A stretch of DNA of 64,000 nucleotides from Escherichia coli (GCF_051903065.1 NZ_CP178438.1); one strand, 5' to 3'; counted from the first letter of the stretch, positions 2,005-12,741 are shown. Notes: generated by a model not told the origin, from the sequence alone. Translations and numbers: made by a program.

Positions 2005-2760
2005 CTACATATCTGCCAACAACATCCCAGCCATACCATCCAGTCGCTTCTTAACCTTTTCCCAGCCCGGCATAACCTGCCCCATCAGACGGTAAAACTC
2101 CTCGCTGTGGTTGTGCTCAGCCACATGGCATAACTCATGTAGCAAAACATAATCGATACATTCTGAGGATGCCTTAACCAGCCATGGATTCAGGGTCAGA
2201 CAGCCTTTTGCTGAACAGTTGCCCCATTGCGTTTGCATCGCCCGCAGACGTATCGGAGGACGCTCACTGACCCAAAGGGTCTGCGGAATCAGTAAATCAA
2301 GCCTGCGCTGAAAAACATCTCTGGCACGTTCCCGATACCATTCAGCCAGCAAGGCTTTAATCTTTTCTGCCGATTTGTGTCTGACAGTCACTTCCAGACG
2401 CCCACGCAACATTTTCACTCGTTGCGGCACAGTAGCGTCTTCTGTCACTTTCAACTGATATTGCTTACCGAGATAATAATGGCTTTCTCCGCTGACATAC
2501 TGACGCGGAACAATGTGTATCTGTTGCTCCCTGAAATCACGCAGTTGCTGGTATATCCAGCGCCCACGTTTTTTCAGCGCAGACAATACCTCGTGCTCCG
2601 GTGTTTCAGGCGGTACAGAGGCCACAACCCGGCAGTCCGGATAAACCTTAATGAGCACCCTGCCCTTTACGACCTGACGCGGAACACACTGTACGACGAT
2701 GACCTCATCACCATAGACAATGCGTAACGCTTTCATTGATGGCGATTCTTTTTCACTCAT
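2005..2760 (-). CDS. HExxH metal-dependent hydrolase (DUF45/YgjP/SprT-like), last gene of the R-M operon
   Basis: HELCHVAEHNH motif; 4-bp overlap with hsdR stop. Confidence 0.65.
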   Translation of the reverse strand: MSEKESPSMKALRIVYGDEVIVVQCVPRQVVKGRVLIKVYPDCRVVASVPPETPEHEVLSALKKRGRWIYQQLRDFREQQIHIVPRQYVSGESHYYLGKQYQLKVTEDATVPQRVKMLRGRLEVTVRHKSAEKIKALLAEWYRERARDVFQRRLDLLIPQTLWVSERPPIRLRAMQTQWGNCSAKGCLTLNPWLVKASSECIDYVLLHELCHVAEHNHSEEFYRLMGQVMPGWEKVKKRLDGMAGMLLADM

Positions 2761-5700
2761 GATTTCATCAAACCAACGCGCAGTATCTGGATGATGGTTT
2801 CCACAATACGGTTAACCTGATTCATTCCGGCACCAATTTCCCGGCAGGCCGTAAACAGCAGTGGTAGCAGACTTGTCTTAACGACTTTCTCAATGTCCTG
2901 GGGGTTCAGGGAGTTTTCTGCCACCGCTCTAACGATAATGCTGTCCACTTCAAAAGCCAGCTTCGTCCACTTATCCTGCACCTGAACGTCTTTTACCACA
3001 AAAACCTCAGGTAGCTCTTTTTTAAATACACCGTAATACGCCTGAGCATGCTTGTTTACCGCCAGTGCATCCGGGATATCGCTGAGCTTACGGGCTTCAA
3101 CCTGTTCTTCAAACTCACGGAATAAGAGGTACTGCTTAAGTGGATGGTCGAACAGTTTTTCAGCCTCTTCGATTGCCATACGCAGGAGTCTGGAAAAGGC
3201 CTCCTGAGCATACGGATCATCACGCAGCTCCTGCTCAATCATCTTCGTCACACGGGTTTTAATGATGTCGGTTTCATTGCGGGTTTTATTGTTGTCCCAC
3301 TCTTCGGGCTTTTCGCTCTTACCCATTTTACCGACTTCATACACGCCATCCGGTTCACGAACCTCAACGCCGGTGACATGCTTATCCAGCAGTTTTTTCA
3401 CCTGCTCGGCGTAGTCGTCATAATTGACCTGCTCTCCACTGACCTGCATCGCCCACTGGCGCAGGCTGGACATCTGTTTTACGGTTTCTTTATAGAGGTT
3501 TCGGTCTTGTTCCGTAAAGCTCTTGTCGGTGAAGAAGGTGGCGGACTGCAGTGCCACTTTCAGGCATCCGGCAAAGGCCGTTAACGCCTCGAAGAAATCA
3601 TCACGGGTTTTCTGATGGATATCGACCATCTCTCCGTCACGTTCTTCCATTTTAGGCACCAGTACCGCACGTAACTGCTCAGTATCATTTTTGTTTTTGA
3701 CACCAGCAAATATGGCCCACAGCTGGTTATACAGATGCGGCAGGCGCTTGTATTCAGAGCTCATGGCGCTGTACAGCCCGTCAATATCTTTGATGTCGTA
3801 TCCGCCCTGAGTTCGGGAGGCGAGGTCCTGATATTTGCCGATAGTCGTGTCCAGCTCAGCCAGAATACCGCGATAATCAATCAGCAGACCGAACTTTTTT
3901 AGTGGATGCAGTCGGTTCACCCGCGCAATCGCCTGGATAAGGTTGTGGGACTTAAGCGGCTTGTCGATATACAGCACGGTATTCTTCGGCTCATCAAACC
4001 CGGTGAGCAGTTTATCAACGACTATCAGCAATTTGAGCTTCTCATCGGTATCGAAACGACTGATGATATTGCGGGTATACACAGACTCATCCTGCGTGCC
4101 GACGTTATCTTTCCACCATTTCGTCACTTCCGGCAGTTTGCTTTCATCCACCTCAGTATTCCCTTCCCGGGTATCCGGCGGGCTGATAACTACAGCTGAC
4201 TCAAACAACCCGGCTTCATCAAGATACTTTTTATATTTGATGGCGGAAATCTTGCTGTCGCAGGCAAGCTGGCCTTTCAGCCCCTCATCAATATTCTTCG
4301 AGAAGTGCGTGGCGATATCGAGTGCGATCAGACGGATGCGATCATCTGCACTATAAACCTCACCTTTACGGGCATATTTACGCTTAAGGTCGGCTTTTTG
4401 CGCTTCGCTTAACCCATCGGTAATACGATCAAACCAGGCATCTATTGCCCGATCGTTAACCTCAAGGTCGGGAATACGTTCTTCATACAGCAAAGGTGTA
4501 ACGGCTTTATCTTCTACCGCTCGCTGCATGGTATAAGCGTGGACAATCGGTCCGAATTTATTGGTGGTCTTATCTTCTTTTAGCAATGGCGTACCAGTAA
4601 ATGCTACAAAGGCGGCGTTCGGCAGTGCCAGTTTCATTCGCACATGGTTCTCACCACCCTGGCTACGGTGTCCTTCATCAATCAGAACGATGATATCGGG
4701 GCTGGTATTGACGCATTCAGGAAGTTTTGTCGCTGAATTAAATTTCTGGATTAGGGTGAAAATGATGCGTTCTTTACCGGAGCCAATCTGTTTCGCCAGC
4801 ATCTGCCCGGATGTCGCCATTGCATTGGCTTTGTCTTTTTTCCCGGCCAACTCGCCGCCGGATGCAAAGGTACTGCTGAGCTGTTCTTCAAGATCGATAC
4901 GGTCCGTCACCACCACGATACGACACCGCTTCAGGCTGTCATGAAGGATCAGCGCCTTGCTGAGGAACACCATGGTGTACGATTTGCCAGAGCCGGTGGT
5001 ATGCCAGATAACACCACCTTCCCTGCCCCCATCGGGTCTGCGGGTACTGATGCGTTCCAGCAGTCTTTTAATCCCGAACACCTGCTGATAGCGGGCAACA
5101 ATTTTTCCGGTCTTTTTATCAAACAGGGTGAAGAAGCGGGTCATCTCCAGCAGACGTTCCGGCGAAAGCAGACTGATGAGCAGCTTATCCTGCCCGCTGA
5201 CAGCCAGTTCCCCCCCGGCGATTAACTGCTGATACCAGTTGAGATCGCCAACAGGACGATGCTCAAATAACGCATCAATTTGTTCAGTCGATAAAGGATG
5301 GTTGCGCAGGGCATACATCTGCGCATCGGTAATATCCTCTTCGCGCCATGCCGCCCAGAATTTCATTGGCGTATGGCATGTACCGTAGCGCCCGTCATGA
5401 CCGTTAATCGAAAGTAATAACTGGCTGTAGACAAACAGCTGCGGGATTTCATCGTTGAACTGGTTGCGGATACTCTGGGATATCCCCTCGTCAATGGTTG
5501 GCCCTTTCTTGCCATGACCAGCCGGGCTTTTCGCTTCAATAACAGCCAGCGGGATACCATTAACAAAGCAGACAATATCTGGCCTCCGGGTTTCAACACC
5601 ACCTGACCGCAATACCGTAAATTCTTCAGTAAAATGGAACTGGTTATTTTCCGGATGTTCCCAGTCGATCAGCGCAATGGTGGGGTTGACCTTCTTGCCA

Positions 5701-6044
5701 TCGACAAACTCCGTGACGGCGATACCGTAGAGCAGATGGTTATACATCCGCTCATTGGCTTTGAGCAGCCCTTCATTCAGCGCCGGAGAACAGACCTGTG
5801 ATATCAGGTTATCCAGTGCTTTTTCCGATAACTGGCAGGTTTTGCCACCCGCCATAAAGGAACGCTTCGACAGCTCTTCACGCAGAACCGGACGCAGCAC
5901 CACCTCATCCTGTTTATAGCCCCGGTAATCCATAATCTGTTTCGGAGATAAAAACGCCCAGCCGAGGCTGGTCAGTAACGTCAGTGCCGGAATTTTGGCG
6001 CTGTATTCTTCCTGGAATTTTGGCGTGTACGTCTGGTTCATCAT
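2757..6044 (-). CDS. hsdR: Type I restriction enzyme R subunit
   Basis: 1095-aa ORF with helicase motifs (GSGKS Walker A, DEGH box). Confidence 0.9.
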   Translation of the reverse strand: MMNQTYTPKFQEEYSAKIPALTLLTSLGWAFLSPKQIMDYRGYKQDEVVLRPVLREELSKRSFMAGGKTCQLSEKALDNLISQVCSPALNEGLLKANERMYNHLLYGIAVTEFVDGKKVNPTIALIDWEHPENNQFHFTEEFTVLRSGGVETRRPDIVCFVNGIPLAVIEAKSPAGHGKKGPTIDEGISQSIRNQFNDEIPQLFVYSQLLLSINGHDGRYGTCHTPMKFWAAWREEDITDAQMYALRNHPLSTEQIDALFEHRPVGDLNWYQQLIAGGELAVSGQDKLLISLLSPERLLEMTRFFTLFDKKTGKIVARYQQVFGIKRLLERISTRRPDGGREGGVIWHTTGSGKSYTMVFLSKALILHDSLKRCRIVVVTDRIDLEEQLSSTFASGGELAGKKDKANAMATSGQMLAKQIGSGKERIIFTLIQKFNSATKLPECVNTSPDIIVLIDEGHRSQGGENHVRMKLALPNAAFVAFTGTPLLKEDKTTNKFGPIVHAYTMQRAVEDKAVTPLLYEERIPDLEVNDRAIDAWFDRITDGLSEAQKADLKRKYARKGEVYSADDRIRLIALDIATHFSKNIDEGLKGQLACDSKISAIKYKKYLDEAGLFESAVVISPPDTREGNTEVDESKLPEVTKWWKDNVGTQDESVYTRNIISRFDTDEKLKLLIVVDKLLTGFDEPKNTVLYIDKPLKSHNLIQAIARVNRLHPLKKFGLLIDYRGILAELDTTIGKYQDLASRTQGGYDIKDIDGLYSAMSSEYKRLPHLYNQLWAIFAGVKNKNDTEQLRAVLVPKMEERDGEMVDIHQKTRDDFFEALTAFAGCLKVALQSATFFTDKSFTEQDRNLYKETVKQMSSLRQWAMQVSGEQVNYDDYAEQVKKLLDKHVTGVEVREPDGVYEVGKMGKSEKPEEWDNNKTRNETDIIKTRVTKMIEQELRDDPYAQEAFSRLLRMAIEEAEKLFDHPLKQYLLFREFEEQVEARKLSDIPDALAVNKHAQAYYGVFKKELPEVFVVKDVQVQDKWTKLAFEVDSIIVRAVAENSLNPQDIEKVVKTSLLPLLFTACREIGAGMNQVNRIVETIIQILRVGLMKS

Positions 6045-6093
6045 TAATCCTTTTCTTTCTGGCGCTACTCGCTACTGGTCACATGAAGATTCA

Positions 6094-6777
6094 TCAATGC
6101 AGACAGCACCTCTTAAATTTTTTACCGCTGCCACACGGACACGGGTCATTTCGCCCGGGCATGTTTTCTGCCCCCTTCACTGGAACAGGCCGGGATGATG
6201 CCTCTGACATTCTCACTGACAACCAGTACTGATAAAGTGCCAGTGCAGCAGGCTGAATAAGGGAAATACTTTTCTCAAACTGCTCTCCGGTCATTTTCTC
6301 AAGTACAGGAAAATTCTTCTCCACGCCATGAAGAGCGATCACTTCCAGAGAAGGCCGTAACTCACCGGGAAGACCAGACCAGTCATCCAGTGACTTTCCT
6401 TTCATATAACCAAAACACCACTCTTCCACAATGGTATATTTTTCCCCCTTTACCTCACGCTCATTGAAAATCGGTTCAAACTGTTCAGGGGCCTCATACA
6501 GGCAGCCAGCGATATCGTTCATATGCTGAAAACACAGCCCCACAAAACGCGTCATCTCTTTTTCGGTGGTCCAGCGAGGGTGGTAATCACCTCGCCCCCA
6601 GATAGCACTGAGCCAGGTATTAGGGGAAATCGTATTCGGGCCAGAGACAATCGCTGTCAGAAAGCCATCCAGCTCAGAGAAACAGAGCACAGAATCATCA
6701 TTGCCGTATTTCAGCAACACCTCTTCCAGCCAGTCGATTTCCCGGTCAATCAGCGGCCCGCTTTTCGTCAGTTTCAT
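6094..6777 (-). CDS. YecA-like UPF0149 protein with C-terminal SEC-C zinc motif, embedded between hsdS and hsdR
   Basis: 227 aa; C-terminal GRNDPCPCGSGKKFKRCC; start ATG overlaps hsdS stop (ATGA). Confidence 0.8.
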   Translation of the reverse strand: MKLTKSGPLIDREIDWLEEVLLKYGNDDSVLCFSELDGFLTAIVSGPNTISPNTWLSAIWGRGDYHPRWTTEKEMTRFVGLCFQHMNDIAGCLYEAPEQFEPIFNEREVKGEKYTIVEEWCFGYMKGKSLDDWSGLPGELRPSLEVIALHGVEKNFPVLEKMTGEQFEKSISLIQPAALALYQYWLSVRMSEASSRPVPVKGAENMPGRNDPCPCGSGKKFKRCCLH

Positions 6778-8012
6778 TCGGCAACCGCCTCATCGACCTT
6801 AACACGACGTTTGCCAGTCAGTAGCTGTTGCATCAGGGCTTTTTTCTCATCTCTCAGGCAGGCGAGTTTTTTCTCCAGCGTGGAGATTTCGGCATCGGCG
6901 ACGGACAGGACGGCGGCGATTTTTTGTTGTTCTCTTATACTGGGTAAGTCTAGTTCAAACTCTTTAACCATTCCGGCGTTTAGGTTGGACTGTGTACCTT
7001 GCTGGCCTTGTAGTTTTATTTTTTCTTTTAATGATGTAAGATAGAAATATAAAAACTCATAATTTAAACAATCTTTTGGTCTAATACCCAAGATTGCCTG
7101 CGAAGATGTTAAATTTACAGCAGCAATGCTGCATTCACCTATAGAAGCATACATAGCATAAAGAACCGAGTTTTTTGGATATATTCTTGCGGATGAACTG
7201 TTCAATCCTAATTCAGTCAGATATTTTTCAGTTGTAGCAATCCACTTTCCATTAGATGTCATATCAGAAATAGATACCCATGGGATATTCCCGCCATAAT
7301 ACTCTTCAACCGTTGATTTCGGAGTACCTCCACTGTTCATATCGGCTATCGCACCCAGTTTTACTCTCTTCCACTCCCCACTAAACCTCACCCCATTCTC
7401 ATCCAGCAAGCGTTTCTTCCCGGTAAGTAATTGCTGCATCAGGGCTTTTTTCTGCTGCTGACTATTGGCGAGCAGCTTTTCCGTCACTGAAATCGCGTTA
7501 TCCCAGGTTGACAAGATTTTGGCTATTTTCTTTTGTTCCGCCAGTGGGGGGAGTAATACAGGAAAACCGCAAACATCATCACGTGTAATATTAGGGTCTT
7601 TACGACTACTTGCCGCAAATTTCTTCCATAATTTTACATTCCCGTTTAAGTAATTCAGGATATATGCTGGTTCTGCTTTATCACGATCGAGTATAAGACC
7701 GGATAATGCTTGGTTTATTGCTGCCGGTATAGTGAGAAGTCCAGTTCTTCCGATCTGGTTAAAGCCTCCATACATCGCTACTAAAACAGTACCAACAGGA
7801 AATACAGAGCAAGATGTTTCTAAAAGGGCTGTGTCAGTAATTTTCTCATCAGTTGAGATAATTTCACCGTTATTTAGGTCTAATGTCTTTACCCATGGAG
7901 TACCAGCAGTAGAAAAATAACGCTCTCCCTCAGCCCTCAGCGGAGTAGATCCAGATTTAATTTTTGCTATGTCCGATAATTTGACATGTCTCCAGCCAGG
8001 TTTGAGCTTCAT
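6774..8012 (-). CDS. hsdS: Type I R-M specificity subunit
   Basis: Two target-recognition domains with repeated conserved spacer motif KKALMQQLLTGK(K/R)R. Confidence 0.85.
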   Translation of the reverse strand: MKLKPGWRHVKLSDIAKIKSGSTPLRAEGERYFSTAGTPWVKTLDLNNGEIISTDEKITDTALLETSCSVFPVGTVLVAMYGGFNQIGRTGLLTIPAAINQALSGLILDRDKAEPAYILNYLNGNVKLWKKFAASSRKDPNITRDDVCGFPVLLPPLAEQKKIAKILSTWDNAISVTEKLLANSQQQKKALMQQLLTGKKRLLDENGVRFSGEWKRVKLGAIADMNSGGTPKSTVEEYYGGNIPWVSISDMTSNGKWIATTEKYLTELGLNSSSARIYPKNSVLYAMYASIGECSIAAVNLTSSQAILGIRPKDCLNYEFLYFYLTSLKEKIKLQGQQGTQSNLNAGMVKEFELDLPSIREQQKIAAVLSVADAEISTLEKKLACLRDEKKALMQQLLTGKRRVKVDEAVAE

Positions 8013-9565
8013 AAGCTATCCTCTTGCATACTGAAGTTTTCTCTTTCACCATAACCCAACTCCTTCAGATAACCCGCCATCTCTGTTTCGAGTTTTGACA
8101 GTTCCACTTTCAATTGCTCACGTTCGGCACGCACAGCCAGCAAGTCAATCTCGTCTTCTTCCTCAAAGGTATCGACATAGCGCGGAATATTGAGGTTGTA
8201 ATCGTTGTCCTGAATTTCCTTCAGGCTGGCGAGATAGGCGTATTTCTCGACGTTATCGCCATCACGGTAGGTCTTGACGATTTTCTTAATGTTTTCTTCG
8301 CTAAGCTGGTTCTGGTTTTTACCTGCCTTGAATTCACGGCTGGCATCGATAAACAGCACCTTATCATCAACTTTCTGCTTTTTGAAAATCAGAATCGCAG
8401 CCGGAATCCCCGTACCGTAGAACAGTTTTTCCGGCAGACCAATTACCGCATCCAGCAAATTTTCGTCGATCAGTTTCTGGCGAATTTTACCTTCGCTGGA
8501 GCCACGGAAAAGCACACCGTGTGGCACAACTACGCCCATACGGCCAGTTCCCGGTTTCAGGGTTTCGATCATATGCGAGATAAAAGCGTAATCTCCTTTA
8601 GTCTTCGGCGGTACACCGCGACGAAAACGGCCAAACTTATCGTTCTCAGCCTCGTCATGGCCCCACTTATCCAGGCTGAACGGTGGGTTAGCGGTCACGA
8701 TATCAAACAGCATCAGGTCGCCATTTTTATCGAGCAGTTTCGGGTTACGAATGGTATCGCCCCACTCGATTTTATGGTTGTCTTCGCCGTGCAGGAACAT
8801 GTTCATTTTCGCCAGCGACCACGTGGAGCCAATCGCTTCCTGACCAAACAACGCATAATTACGGCTGTTATGTCCGGAGACAATTTTACGTCCGCACTTC
8901 ATCAATAACGAACCAGAGCCGCAGGCCGGATCGCAGATGGTATCACCCGGTTGCGGATCAAGCAGTTCAGCAATCAGGTCTGAAACTTCTGGTGGGGTAT
9001 AGAATTCCCCGGCTTTCTGCCCACCGCTGGCGGCAAAGTTTTTGATCAGATATTCGTAGGCATTACCGATAACGTCCAGCGTACCTACACGGCTTGGCTT
9101 CAGGTTGAGATCTTCACCGGCGAAGTCTTCCAGCAACTGACGCAGGATGGTGTTCTTCTGTTTTTCTTCACCCAAGCGGTCAGTGTTAAACGAAATATCC
9201 TGGAACACGCTTTTCCCGGCATCTTTCAGTTTGGTTCCGTTGGCTTCTTCGATTGCATGCAGAGCCTGATCGATACGCTCACCGTTACCCGGCTCATGGC
9301 GGCGTTCGTACAGCGCATAAAAGCTGGCACTTTTTGGCAGTACAAAACGCTCGTTGGCCATCATCGCTTCAATCAGTTCCGGCGCATCGCCATACTGTTC
9401 TTTGTATTCGTCATAGTGATCCTGCCAGACATCTGAAATGTACTTGAGGAACAGCATGGTAAGGATAAAGTCTTTATAGGTATCAGCACTGATGGTGCCA
9501 CGGAACGTATCACACGCGGCCCACAGGGCTTTGTTGATCGTGTCCTGACTGATTTTGTCGTTCAT
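8009..9565 (-). CDS. hsdM: Type I R-M N6-adenine DNA methyltransferase
   Basis: 518 aa; NPPF catalytic motif; AdoMet-binding DPACGSG; 4-bp overlap with hsdS. Confidence 0.9.
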   Translation of the reverse strand: MNDKISQDTINKALWAACDTFRGTISADTYKDFILTMLFLKYISDVWQDHYDEYKEQYGDAPELIEAMMANERFVLPKSASFYALYERRHEPGNGERIDQALHAIEEANGTKLKDAGKSVFQDISFNTDRLGEEKQKNTILRQLLEDFAGEDLNLKPSRVGTLDVIGNAYEYLIKNFAASGGQKAGEFYTPPEVSDLIAELLDPQPGDTICDPACGSGSLLMKCGRKIVSGHNSRNYALFGQEAIGSTWSLAKMNMFLHGEDNHKIEWGDTIRNPKLLDKNGDLMLFDIVTANPPFSLDKWGHDEAENDKFGRFRRGVPPKTKGDYAFISHMIETLKPGTGRMGVVVPHGVLFRGSSEGKIRQKLIDENLLDAVIGLPEKLFYGTGIPAAILIFKKQKVDDKVLFIDASREFKAGKNQNQLSEENIKKIVKTYRDGDNVEKYAYLASLKEIQDNDYNLNIPRYVDTFEEEDEIDLLAVRAEREQLKVELSKLETEMAGYLKELGYGERENFSMQEDSL

Positions 9566-9937
9566 GAATCATCCTGGTCTGAAGAAAAAGCTAGCGATGC
9601 AGGGCTTTGCATCTTAAAAATTGCGGTAAATGATACCGTAAGATGCCTCCCCTGACACGCCAATATCGCAGCATTCAGGTTTGCATCATCCCCGTAATAT
9701 CGACATGAGACAGACTGACACAACCTGGCTCGTCACTCGCTAAAAACCAATTATCTTAGTAAGATAGCATCCATATTAGCCATGGTGTAAAACTGCCGTT
9801 GGGGTAATGATGATCCATATATCACCCGTTCTGGTGTGTGGAGCTGACATGATCCATAATCGGCAACGTTGATGCCCTTTGATAGTAATGATGACCGTCA
9901 ATGTGATTCCCCTGCTGACTGGAGGTCTCCGGATAGA

Positions 9938-11104
9938 ATGAGTATTGCCAACTGCGCTATCGGCCCACTTTATGATGAGCAAATAAAAAAAACACTTATG
10001 TATGCTGACCATAAATTCAAGCGGCTAATGAATACACGAATGTCGTTACTCGAACATTTATCACCCCACTATGACTTATCTTCCATGTTCAGCTATGAGT
10101 TGGAGGGAAGAGTTTTTCGGATTAAATTGATCAAGCCTGAGATTAAATTATCTCGCCAGCAGTTGATCTTCTCCTCACTCTTTTTAGAGCATGATTTTCT
10201 AAAAGAATATAAAAAACACATCTCAAATACTCTACAAAAAACAATCAAACAGTGCATTAAAAAACACAAACAAAAAATCAAAATCGAGCCTTCTATTTTA
10301 GATTACATATCAGCGTCACCCCGCAATACGTCGAGTTATGTATTACATGAGATAGTTTTTGAATCTAAACATTGCGATGAAATTCGCAATATTAAAAATG
10401 ATATATTGCTTGATGAACTAACGTTGAATGGCCGGATCACTAACATTTCAAAATACATTAAAAATAGTCAAGATAAAATCGTCGAACATATAGAGTTCTG
10501 CACTCATAAATTTGTCAATATAAGTCGTAAGAACCGGCACATTTTCAACACCACCACAATATCTGGCAGAAAACCTAACATCACTGGTGTTTTACTTTGC
10601 CTTTCAGAATTGATAAGCAACCTGCATATTTACCCAACTGAAATTAATAATATAAGCAATGCCATAATATTAAGCATTGCATACTCTGTACTTCAACATC
10701 TTCAATCCGGAAGAGAAACAGAAAAAACCAAAACCTCTCCAGCACTGGATTTTATCCCCACCATCATCGCACCTCATGTTTTCTACCTGGCGAAACGCGA
10801 AAAATCCTCTCAATATAAATACATTGAAAAAGAATATCTTCTCGGCCAGTTACTTATATTTTTGATGTATAAAACAGTTTACTACTCGATTCATAGCATC
10901 AGGGTAAGCCGTAAGCATTTCTATAATGATATAAAACCAAAATTAGTGACACTAAAAAAAGAAAGCTTATTAAGCACCAATTTCATGAAAAATCGAAGAG
11001 AGATTAGTGGTGAAGTCTTTGGTGATGTTGGTAGTATTGAGGCTGATTTTCGAGAAATCAGTACACTGATTCATCGGCGGAAGGCATTATTTATTTCCTT
11101 TTAA
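9938..11104 (+). CDS. Hypothetical protein, AT-rich, Lys/Ile/Asn-rich, no recognised domain
   Basis: Long ORF (track 9869..11104); start at 9938 chosen where composition turns AT-rich; start uncertain. Confidence 0.45.
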   Translation: MSIANCAIGPLYDEQIKKTLMYADHKFKRLMNTRMSLLEHLSPHYDLSSMFSYELEGRVFRIKLIKPEIKLSRQQLIFSSLFLEHDFLKEYKKHISNTLQKTIKQCIKKHKQKIKIEPSILDYISASPRNTSSYVLHEIVFESKHCDEIRNIKNDILLDELTLNGRITNISKYIKNSQDKIVEHIEFCTHKFVNISRKNRHIFNTTTISGRKPNITGVLLCLSELISNLHIYPTEINNISNAIILSIAYSVLQHLQSGRETEKTKTSPALDFIPTIIAPHVFYLAKREKSSQYKYIEKEYLLGQLLIFLMYKTVYYSIHSIRVSRKHFYNDIKPKLVTLKKESLLSTNFMKNRREISGEVFGDVGSIEADFREISTLIHRRKALFISF

Positions 11105-11610: not shown

Positions 11611-12741
11611 ATGTTCGAGAAAATGAAAAACAATGTAACCCGTATACCGGGGAATTTAACAAAACTTAATCAATACCAAAAAGACATTGATCACCTGTCT
11701 AAACTATTTTCTGAACAGCAATTACTGGAACTAATGACGACTACCGAATCCGATCAAATATTGCAAATGAAGCCTGCTGTAGATATTCTTCATGTACTAT
11801 CTCCATCAGCATCTACTGCTAAGCATATCAATTTTTTTCAGCACGTCCCAGTGCTCGAACAATGGTTAAAAAAGGAGTGCACTGCCTTTAATTTACTGGC
11901 AGTACATTTCTATTCACAGCAATCCCGTAAAAATGTCATTCCGAAAGAAATCTGTATGCTACTGGATGCATTTATTAAAACTGAACTTTCATCTGCGGTT
12001 AATGGTAATAATAATGCCGAACTCCTTTCTTGTTTTCAAAACACGCTGGATAAAATGTGCAATACACTAACATTTATAGACCACACAGTTACGGAACAAT
12101 CAGGTCAAGTAGCAATGCTTGATTTCAGCGCAAAAATGCATGAATATACTGTTGAAATCAGGACCTTTTTGAAGTCTGAATACTGGCTAAACAAACTACC
12201 TAAGGATATTAATATTCCATCCATTGACCTATCCTGGCTTGTGTTTTGTTACTTTTGCTCTGAATATCTTTTTGTATTTATTCAAACAACGCTCAATACA
12301 ATGAAGGCAGGAAAAATCATTCGTGATAACTACCTTTATCATCCTAAAATGATTGCATTGATCATTTTATCTATGCTGCCTTATGAAGTCATTCATAACG
12401 ATGGATCACTGAGTGAGTTTAAAACGCCTTTAACCAGCCCTGATGAGTTCATAATCAAATCTATTTGCATTAAAGGTAAGCAAAACACTACAGGGCATAA
12501 AAAAGATATAGAACAATTGCTTCGTAAGACATATATCTATATTGCATTACTCTTAAACCCTGAGTGGGCACCATCTTCCAAGGAGTTGATTTCCTTTTTA
12601 TCAGGAAAGTCCACAGTGATAAGTGGTTCACTCAACTTCCAGTCAACCTCCAGTGGTCTGGGTGTTCAAACAAACAATATCACTCTTCTTAAGAATGAGG
12701 TTTACTTCGAAAAAATAGCGAACAAGATCATGAAACTGTAG
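11611..12741 (+). CDS. Hypothetical protein, AT-rich, no recognised domain
   Basis: 376-aa ORF with GAGGA RBS upstream of ATG. Confidence 0.5.
   Translation: MFEKMKNNVTRIPGNLTKLNQYQKDIDHLSKLFSEQQLLELMTTTESDQILQMKPAVDILHVLSPSASTAKHINFFQHVPVLEQWLKKECTAFNLLAVHFYSQQSRKNVIPKEICMLLDAFIKTELSSAVNGNNNAELLSCFQNTLDKMCNTLTFIDHTVTEQSGQVAMLDFSAKMHEYTVEIRTFLKSEYWLNKLPKDINIPSIDLSWLVFCYFCSEYLFVFIQTTLNTMKAGKIIRDNYLYHPKMIALIILSMLPYEVIHNDGSLSEFKTPLTSPDEFIIKSICIKGKQNTTGHKKDIEQLLRKTYIYIALLLNPEWAPSSKELISFLSGKSTVISGSLNFQSTSSGLGVQTNNITLLKNEVYFEKIANKIMKL

Follow-up and report, generated by a model that had tools for sequence, protein, structure and literature searches.

A YecA/AscA-like gene as cargo between hsdS and hsdR of a Type I restriction-modification operon on an Escherichia coli pipolin

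The DNA analysed here is a 64,000-nt stretch (the window) of an Escherichia coli chromosome (GCF_051903065.1, NZ_CP178438.1), and its subject is a Type I restriction-modification operon at positions 2005-9565, which carries a gene for a protein of the YecA/AscA family between its specificity and restriction genes. The list of open reading frames (ORFs) and profile searches revealed five co-oriented genes on the minus strand: hsdM, hsdS, a 227-aa YecA-like gene, hsdR and a gene for a YgjP-like HExxH metallopeptidase. This is the gene set that a preliminary description, made from the sequence alone, had proposed, and the three 4-bp ATGA overlaps that it reported, at the hsdM/hsdS, hsdS/YecA-like and hsdR/YgjP-like junctions (three of four), are present in the sequence. 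The same five genes, with the same overlaps, are annotated in RefSeq on the identical chromosome of E. coli strain 23CRST027. A scan of the 49-nt leader that precedes hsdR produced no terminator-like site on the minus strand, and internal promoter or terminator signals did not rise above chance. Promoter-like sites in the region, as found by a consensus scan, are no more numerous than expected from shuffled sequence, and the site upstream of hsdM in Table 1 should be read as weak evidence.

The embedded protein and the core E. coli YecA share 57% identity over their full length, in agreement with the paralogy that had been proposed. The NCBIfam equivalog model for YecA (NF007704) is passed with 359.1 bits against a cut-off of 149, TIGR02292 is matched with 136 bits, and Pfam assigns a UPF0149 domain and a SEC-C motif only, the same architecture, with a SecA-type SEC-C motif, as that of core YecA/AscA. 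The C-terminus of the protein reads CPCGSGKKFKRCCLH, in which C213, C215, C224 and C225 are invariant, and 15 of the 17 residues that align with SecA C-terminal peptides are identical to them. Across the embedded and core clades all cysteine and basic positions of the motif are conserved. More broadly, 74 positions are at least 90% conserved both in the embedded clade (17 sequences) and in core YecA (96 sequences), and a single conserved position is switched between the two clades (R to K at 126).

Relatives retrieved by database search fall into a tight clade of at least 75% identity, with members from E. coli, Providencia and others, followed by a gap and then by the core YecA proteins of Enterobacterales at 60% identity or less. 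The embedded clade is monophyletic in a neighbour-joining tree, where a protein of 69% identity (P0021), whose context lacks a restriction system, falls beside it; this is the nearest non-embedded relative, and its 3-5 kb metagenome contigs show no adjacent tRNA. Pairwise ratios of non-synonymous to synonymous substitution (dN/dS) for the embedded gene are 0.10-0.20 at dS values of up to 1.5. Because of these ratios and the shared conserved positions, the gene is, judged from its sequences, maintained by purifying selection, with no sign of a changed biochemical core. An AlphaFold2 model built from a 25-sequence alignment is mainly helical, and a Foldseek search of the PDB with it gave YgfB (1IZM) as the best match, a weak one (expectation value (E) 0.23; template-modelling scores 0.30/0.38) that adds nothing beyond the Pfam assignment. 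Papers on 'YecA' in Neisseria and Histophilus were considered and set aside, as they concern unrelated gene names or contexts.

By the record of strain 23CRST027, the region is a pipolin inserted at leuZ, an element that encodes integrases and a B-family DNA polymerase. In the same genome, core yecA is found 37.6 kb from leuZ, and the pipolin lies in between, as expected from the earlier claim that the island displaced core yecA from beside leuZ. The embedded copy does not occupy the orthologous tyrP-yecA-leuZ position; it sits in the restriction operon of the island. Since core yecA is located elsewhere in the same genome, the embedded copy is a paralogue or xenologue and not an orthologue: a second, mobile copy whose start overlaps the hsdS stop. 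The 5' context of the core gene is different, with sites for the small RNAs RyhB and RybB immediately upstream (AscA preprint).

Type IC restriction systems have the gene order hsdM-hsdS-hsdR. The operon has this order too, as do EcoR124I and EcoprrI. Its HsdM matches the methyltransferase subunit of EcoR124II, which is among its closest relatives of solved structure, over the full length with 237 bits, versus 99 bits for that of EcoKI, and its HsdR matches EcoR124I HsdR with 119 bits, the best stretch covering 220 residues. By the sequence criterion, the system is therefore a distant relative of Type IC rather than a member. Type I families are, for their part, defined by subunit complementation, antibody cross-reaction and DNA hybridisation. 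In one paper, plasmid-borne Klebsiella Type I units were classed as 'type IC', and a plasmid used in that work has this YecA-like gene beside hsdS. Assignment to the Type ID (StySBLI) family was also considered; the reviews consulted mention no extra ORF in that family.

The arrangement is common. Among 5426 complete E. coli genomes, 540 contain this hsdR family and 417 the embedded YecA-like gene (7.7% of the genomes, and 77% of those with the hsdR family), while the whole five-gene block, at a coverage of at least 80%, is present in 398. The gene overlaps the annotated hsdS in all 30 E. coli rows that were sampled evenly down the ranking. A tblastn search also places it, at 80% identity or more, on approximately 346 plasmids, mostly conjugative Klebsiella plasmids, beside hsdS. 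In each of the 11 loci examined for this feature, from eight genera, its start overlaps the hsdS stop as ATGA or TGATG. The search of other genomes for hsdS-[UPF0149/SEC-C]-hsdR arrangements that the preliminary description had recommended was thus productive, and the rarity and novelty suggested there were overstated, given the frequency in E. coli, the hundreds of plasmids, an existing PADLOC model (PDC-S12, discussed below) and a slot that routinely holds cargo. That description had also named, as a finding that would speak against it, routine presence of the gene at this position together with a known role; routine presence is what the survey found, and a known role is not.

The embedded gene is optional for the restriction system. 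In loci from Citrobacter, Enterobacter, Atlantibacter and Intestinirhabdus with 96-97% identical HsdR, hsdS abuts hsdR (L011, L012, L016, L031 and L049), and in a C. braakii locus (L015) the YecA-like gene is broken and the hsd genes are matched over nearly their full length. The gene can also survive when the restriction genes decay: it is intact in E. coli O145:H28 (L090), whose hsdM and hsdR are pseudogenes, and in four Providencia loci (L002-L005), where hsdS is a remnant and a gene of the GmrSD family follows.

Distant members of the YecA family (26-32% identity) were also observed on other mobile elements (L097, L098 and L099). On a Xanthomonas plasmid such a gene directly adjoins a Tn3-family transposase (ISXc4), and the same flanking module is found on a Pseudomonas plasmid; in Acidovorax, the gene lies next to IS66. 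Xanthomonas plasmids with a distant YecA-family gene number 90. Among those examined, no restriction system was found nearby.

Related loci were collected by an HsdR search with one genome per species, which returned 79 loci of 34-97% identity from many phyla. Co-oriented ORFs of at least 100 aa were counted in the 71 loci with an hsdM or hsdS upstream on the same strand. At least one such ORF occupies the gaps in 56 of the 71, between hsdM and hsdS in 32 loci and between hsdS and hsdR in 52. The 164 slot ORFs form 89 clusters, representatives of which match the cyclase and phospholipase of CBASS (cyclic-oligonucleotide-based anti-phage signalling system), SIR2-like proteins, Fic (PDC-S04), DinD-like proteins (PDC-S13), PDC-S05 and PDC-S34. 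Within this survey the YecA-like gene is confined to the Enterobacterales subset. It is one of many interchangeable cargo genes of the hsdS-hsdR slot. The slots of all 79 loci were also inspected for other SEC-C proteins that might have been recruited convergently in other phyla, and none was found. In several unrelated bacteria (L018, L036, L063 and L070), a complete CBASS cyclase/phospholipase pair was observed inside related Type I operons, in either the hsdS-hsdR or the hsdM-hsdS gap.

The junctions of the slot differ according to its content. The leader and approximately the first four hsdR codons vary by cargo lineage, with HsdR starting as MNQTY, MTPTS or VDKHY, and the flanks are conserved, as LLTGKRRV at the HsdS C-terminus and PKFQEEY in HsdR. 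We infer that cassettes may be exchanged by homologous recombination between the conserved 3' end of hsdS and 5' end of hsdR. The product of the Providencia GmrSD-family gene starts with MTPTSSQKF and resembles the MTPTSTPKF start of HsdR in a related lineage; this suggests that the Providencia hsdR was replaced through recombination at its 5' end. Taken together, the embedded gene is almost certainly a mobile, operon-embedded copy (xenologue) of YecA/AscA, held as slot cargo by a widespread Type I family with the EcoR124/EcoprrI gene order.

Table 1. Locations of the genes, domains and sites discussed; coordinates are those of the window unless a locus number (L) is given.
Feature	Coordinates	Strand	Size, evidence and remarks
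hsdM, Type I methyltransferase subunit	8009-9565	-	518 aa; TIGR00497 284 bits (cut-off 243); PADLOC MTase_I E 5.5e-133
hsdS, specificity subunit	6774-8012	-	412 aa; PADLOC Specificity_I E 3.7e-147
YecA/AscA-like gene, embedded cargo	6094-6777	-	227 aa; NF007704 359.1 bits; PADLOC PDC-S12 E 1.9e-99
UPF0149 domain, residues 15-185	6223-6735	-	Pfam PF03695 E 1.3e-28
SEC-C metal-binding motif, residues 209-225	6103-6153	-	DPCPCGSGKKFKRCC; Pfam PF02810 E 7.8e-10
Leader, YecA-like stop to hsdR start	6045-6093	-	49 nt; purine-rich ribosome-binding site; sequence
hsdR, restriction/translocase subunit	2757-6044	-	1094-1095 aa; TIGR00348 461 bits (above cut-off); PADLOC REase_I PDLC03041 1374 bits
YgjP-like (M48-annotated) HExxH metallopeptidase	2005-2760	-	251 aa; Pfam YgjP-like E 7.6e-58; HELCH
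Promoter-like site upstream of hsdM	9630-9658	-	GTGTCA-17-TATCAT; consensus scan; weak evidence
Cargo-dependent junctions	6030-6110 and 6765-6830; L011, L013, L017, L032 near 9900-10015		
Core yecA, same genome	L001 6535-7200		strain 23CRST027
GmrSD-family gene, Providencia	L002-L005 8789-10723		follows hsdS remnant
594-aa cold-shock-domain gene	L090 7194-8978; L013 8069-9931; L008 3801-5585		594 aa
CBASS cyclase/phospholipase pair	L018 7462-9963; also in L036, L063, L070		nested hsdS-hsdR or hsdM-hsdS
Distant YecA-family genes	L097 7001-7699; L098 6974-7687; L099 6911-7699		26-32% identity
Two DUF262 (GmrSD-like) genes and hhe	1-1350; L001 10040-19448		left of operon; IS1 remnants between
Hypothetical ORFs	9869-11104 and 11611-12741	+	411 and 376 aa; between operon and integrase

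PrrC consists of an ATPase-like N-terminal domain and a C-terminal anticodon-nuclease domain. Its gene in EcoprrI (Type IC) is, like the embedded gene, a co-oriented accessory between hsdS and hsdR, and the placement of the SEC-C gene in the PrrC position (hsdM-hsdS-X-hsdR) noted in the preliminary description is correct. The resemblance ends with the position. A review describes PrrC as a latent toxin, an anticodon nuclease restrained by the restriction enzyme, whereas the embedded YecA-like protein lacks such a domain: Pfam finds no ATPase, nuclease or other effector domain in it, and neither a PrrC nor an ATPase model is among its PADLOC hits. A PrrC-like nature was ruled out on these grounds, as the preliminary description had also maintained.

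The embedded gene has already been catalogued as a phage-defence candidate. By 'guilt-by-embedding', Payne et al. 2024 derived phage defence candidates (PDC), untested ones, among genes that lie inside BREX, DISARM and Type I systems, and gave the example of PrrC, embedded almost exclusively in Type I systems; 'Type 1 RM, PDC-S12' is listed as a frequent cargo in a pipolin survey. The embedded protein matches the PADLOC model for PDC-S12 (PDLC04917) over its full length, with an E-value of 1.9e-99 and 330 bits. The model is a generic profile of the YecA family, however, since core E. coli YecA scores 364 bits, and because the core protein scores higher, the label adds nothing to the evidence of the embedding. 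Core yecA probably inflates the numbers of PDC-S12 genes counted in surveys of Enterobacterales, and the embedded clade would be better counted by its hsdS-adjacent context or with a clade-specific model. The searchable literature yielded no functional test of PDC-S12. Nor did it yield an assigned role for a YecA protein in a restriction-modification operon, and the preliminary description had known of none.

Three relatives of the protein have been studied, and all of them act by binding other proteins rather than by catalysis. AscA/YecA binds SecB (dissociation constant approximately 150 nM) and ribosomes through its metal-binding domain; it holds unfolded clients and prevents aggregation. 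Cells tolerate its overproduction, which also suppresses cold sensitivity in a secB mutant. YgfB of Pseudomonas aeruginosa and MtvS of Francisella belong to the UPF0149 fold family as well, the former binding and neutralising the antiterminator AlpA, the latter binding the RNA polymerase beta-prime subunit and up-regulating a Cas12a system. These two are from another subfamily, and they differ from the embedded protein in that they lack the SEC-C knuckle and their genes are not part of a restriction operon. Because the three relatives bind proteins and the embedded copy keeps the conserved YecA positions, a protein-binding role appears the most likely one. Our tentative reading, which may well not hold as a whole, is that the embedded gene is a cargo YecA/AscA copy whose product acts as a non-toxic, protein-binding adaptor or holdase rather than as a PrrC-like suicide nuclease. 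Taken by itself, a mechanism in which the accessory protein sequesters its partner is possible and still somewhat doubtful.

Such a mechanism might operate as follows. Translational coupling to hsdS would cause the YecA-like protein to be made just ahead of HsdR. Its SecA-type knuckle, loaded with iron or zinc, would dock on SecB and the ribosome, as that of AscA does, and the UPF0149 domain would bind and hold a partner protein, as is the case for AscA, YgfB and MtvS. The effect would be modulation by protein binding, with no enzymatic defence and no cell killing. Candidate clients would be newly made HsdR during establishment of the element, in which case restriction would be buffered, or small early proteins of phages and plasmids. 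One may go further and propose a dedicated protein trap that links the chaperone network of ribosome and SecB to restriction, with the basic metal knuckle docked at the ribosome. Its client would be an early acidic, DNA-mimic anti-restriction protein or an antiterminator of phage or plasmid origin, or else nascent HsdR, in a ClpXP-independent form of control, and the protein would constitute a non-enzymatic 'anti-anti-restriction' or assembly-control subunit. We regard this extended proposal as speculative and quite improbable.

In toxin-antitoxin-chaperone (TAC) modules, a SecB-like chaperone, the paralogue of a Sec-pathway chaperone, has been taken into a selfish or defence module, where it controls a partner protein. 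The present operon differs from these modules, whose chaperone has the SecB fold, and contains no toxin-antitoxin pair; a comparison of HsdS C-termini and HsdR N-termini did not reveal a chaperone-addiction segment in the Hsd proteins.

Several observations weigh against the adaptor/holdase reading. No difference in the HsdS C-terminus or the HsdR N-terminus between loci with and without the gene marks a dependent client. Selection on the embedded gene is approximately threefold weaker than on hsdR, for which dN/dS is 0.03-0.05 in the same loci. The structure model is of moderate confidence (mean predicted local distance difference test score, pLDDT, 75) and has no significant fold match. Finally, Tn3-family transposons and plasmids carry distant members of the YecA family in places where no restriction system is nearby, so that a benefit to mobile elements need not involve restriction at all.

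Alternatively, the protein could be a stand-alone, single-gene anti-phage factor (PDC-S12) that acts without the restriction enzyme. Its target might be a phage antiterminator, for example, or RNA polymerase or the nascent proteins of a phage, and its place in the operon would provide no more than co-mobility and expression. Those slot neighbours that can be identified are defence modules complete in themselves, the YecA-like gene is intact in places where hsdM or hsdR is broken, and YgfB and MtvS, by neutralising AlpA and acting on RNA polymerase, offer precedents for the proposed action. A further parallel is TgvAB, a GmrSD-like pair on VPI-2 of Vibrio cholerae, which is likewise cargo nested in a Type I operon and co-expressed with it; when expressed alone it protects, at a level 10- to 100-fold below that of the whole cluster against several phages. 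TgvAB is, however, a modification-dependent nuclease system with demonstrated anti-phage activity, and the YecA-like gene has no nuclease domain. A factor that stood on its own would also have to be reconciled with the fact that members of at least 75% identity always abut hsdS or its remnant (in the 30 E. coli rows, the annotated plasmid rows and the contig contexts), that the embedded protein is indistinguishable from housekeeping YecA at the conserved positions, that the PDC-S12 model favours core YecA, and that a test of activity was not found in the literature. On balance we consider a stand-alone factor rather unlikely.

The close agreement with the housekeeping protein would be expected if the gene were simply a captured copy of its core neighbour, trapped by an ancestral rearrangement in the leuZ-yecA hotspot and supplying an extra dose of a general chaperone, of mild use to the host or the element, with no role in defence. 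The distance between core yecA and this restriction family is 4-7 kb in Citrobacter and Buttiauxella and approximately 13 kb in E. coli, and the operon is co-oriented with core yecA in Citrobacter and E. coli. That the embedded gene is optional and sometimes broken, and that other YecA-family genes travel as plain passengers of transposons and plasmids, would also suit such an origin. This account is nevertheless unlikely, in view of a dN/dS of 0.1-0.2 sustained over a dS above 1, the preservation of the hsdS start/stop overlap in two different forms and the retention of the gene on hundreds of conjugative Klebsiella plasmids, away from the hotspot. Since P0021 is not beside a tRNA on its contigs, the capture scenario also lacks direct support.

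Least likely of all, and highly improbable, is a guardian after the manner of PrrC, kept latent by the Type I enzyme and released upon its inhibition by a phage, whose knuckle would then block ribosomes or SecB and abort the infection: the prrC-like position, the tight tie to hsdS and the binding of ribosomes and SecB by the AscA knuckle would fit, but the protein lacks effector domains such as a nuclease or an ATPase, an excess of AscA is tolerated and even relieves secB cold sensitivity, with the embedded copy keeping the conserved residues, and the gene is intact where hsdM and hsdR are disrupted, a loss that a restrained toxin should not tolerate.

If the embedded copy plays a part tied to restriction, the protein would represent a new kind of Type I accessory, neither nuclease nor toxin but a chaperone or adaptor, and the YecA/UPF0149 family, which is poorly understood, would gain a function in defence. 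Pipolins and conjugative Klebsiella plasmids are common, so that any effect on the traffic of phages and plasmids would be of practical relevance. The question raised is why a nearly unchanged export chaperone is kept in a mobile restriction operon.

The slot of some loci contains a second gene. In 199 E. coli genomes, approximately half of the loci, the YecA-like gene is followed by one for a 594-aa protein whose N-terminus has a weak cold-shock domain, and in a further 65 genomes only the last 210 nt of that gene remain. The protein matches neither PADLOC nor NCBIfam models and is likely an uncharacterised defence cargo. An obligatory two-gene cassette of the YecA-like gene and the 594-aa gene was considered and rejected, as the window and other loci have no 594-aa gene. 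Relatives of the protein occur alone, with no YecA-like partner, in an integrative and conjugative element hotspot (Vibrio), on a chromosome (Erwinia) and in an integrase island (Pseudomonas), and because they stand alone on other mobile elements the 594-aa family is an independent module.

With a homologue 3' of hsdR in 74 of the 79 related loci, across many phyla, the gene for the YgjP-like peptidase behaves like a fourth, conserved member of the operons of this Type I family. Its product also weakly matches the WLM and SprT-like families of Pfam, and this similarity suggests a protease that may act on enzyme that is stalled or bound to DNA, perhaps to alleviate restriction. We found no literature on a YgjP-like peptidase in Type I operons.

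As for the surroundings of the operon, the sequence to its left includes hhe, an anti-phage gene, as well as two DUF262 (GmrSD-like) genes, with IS1 remnants in between; the operon thus belongs to a more extensive stretch of defence cargo on the pipolin. Copies of core yecA, 57% identical to the embedded gene, stand at the start of several E. coli prophage records (H106-H111), which is probably the result of in silico excision from the leuZ-yecA hotspot rather than a phage-encoded yecA. Between the operon and the integrase, two ORFs of 411 and 376 aa on the plus strand encode hypothetical proteins, and the same pair adjoins the operon in another E. coli strain (L091).

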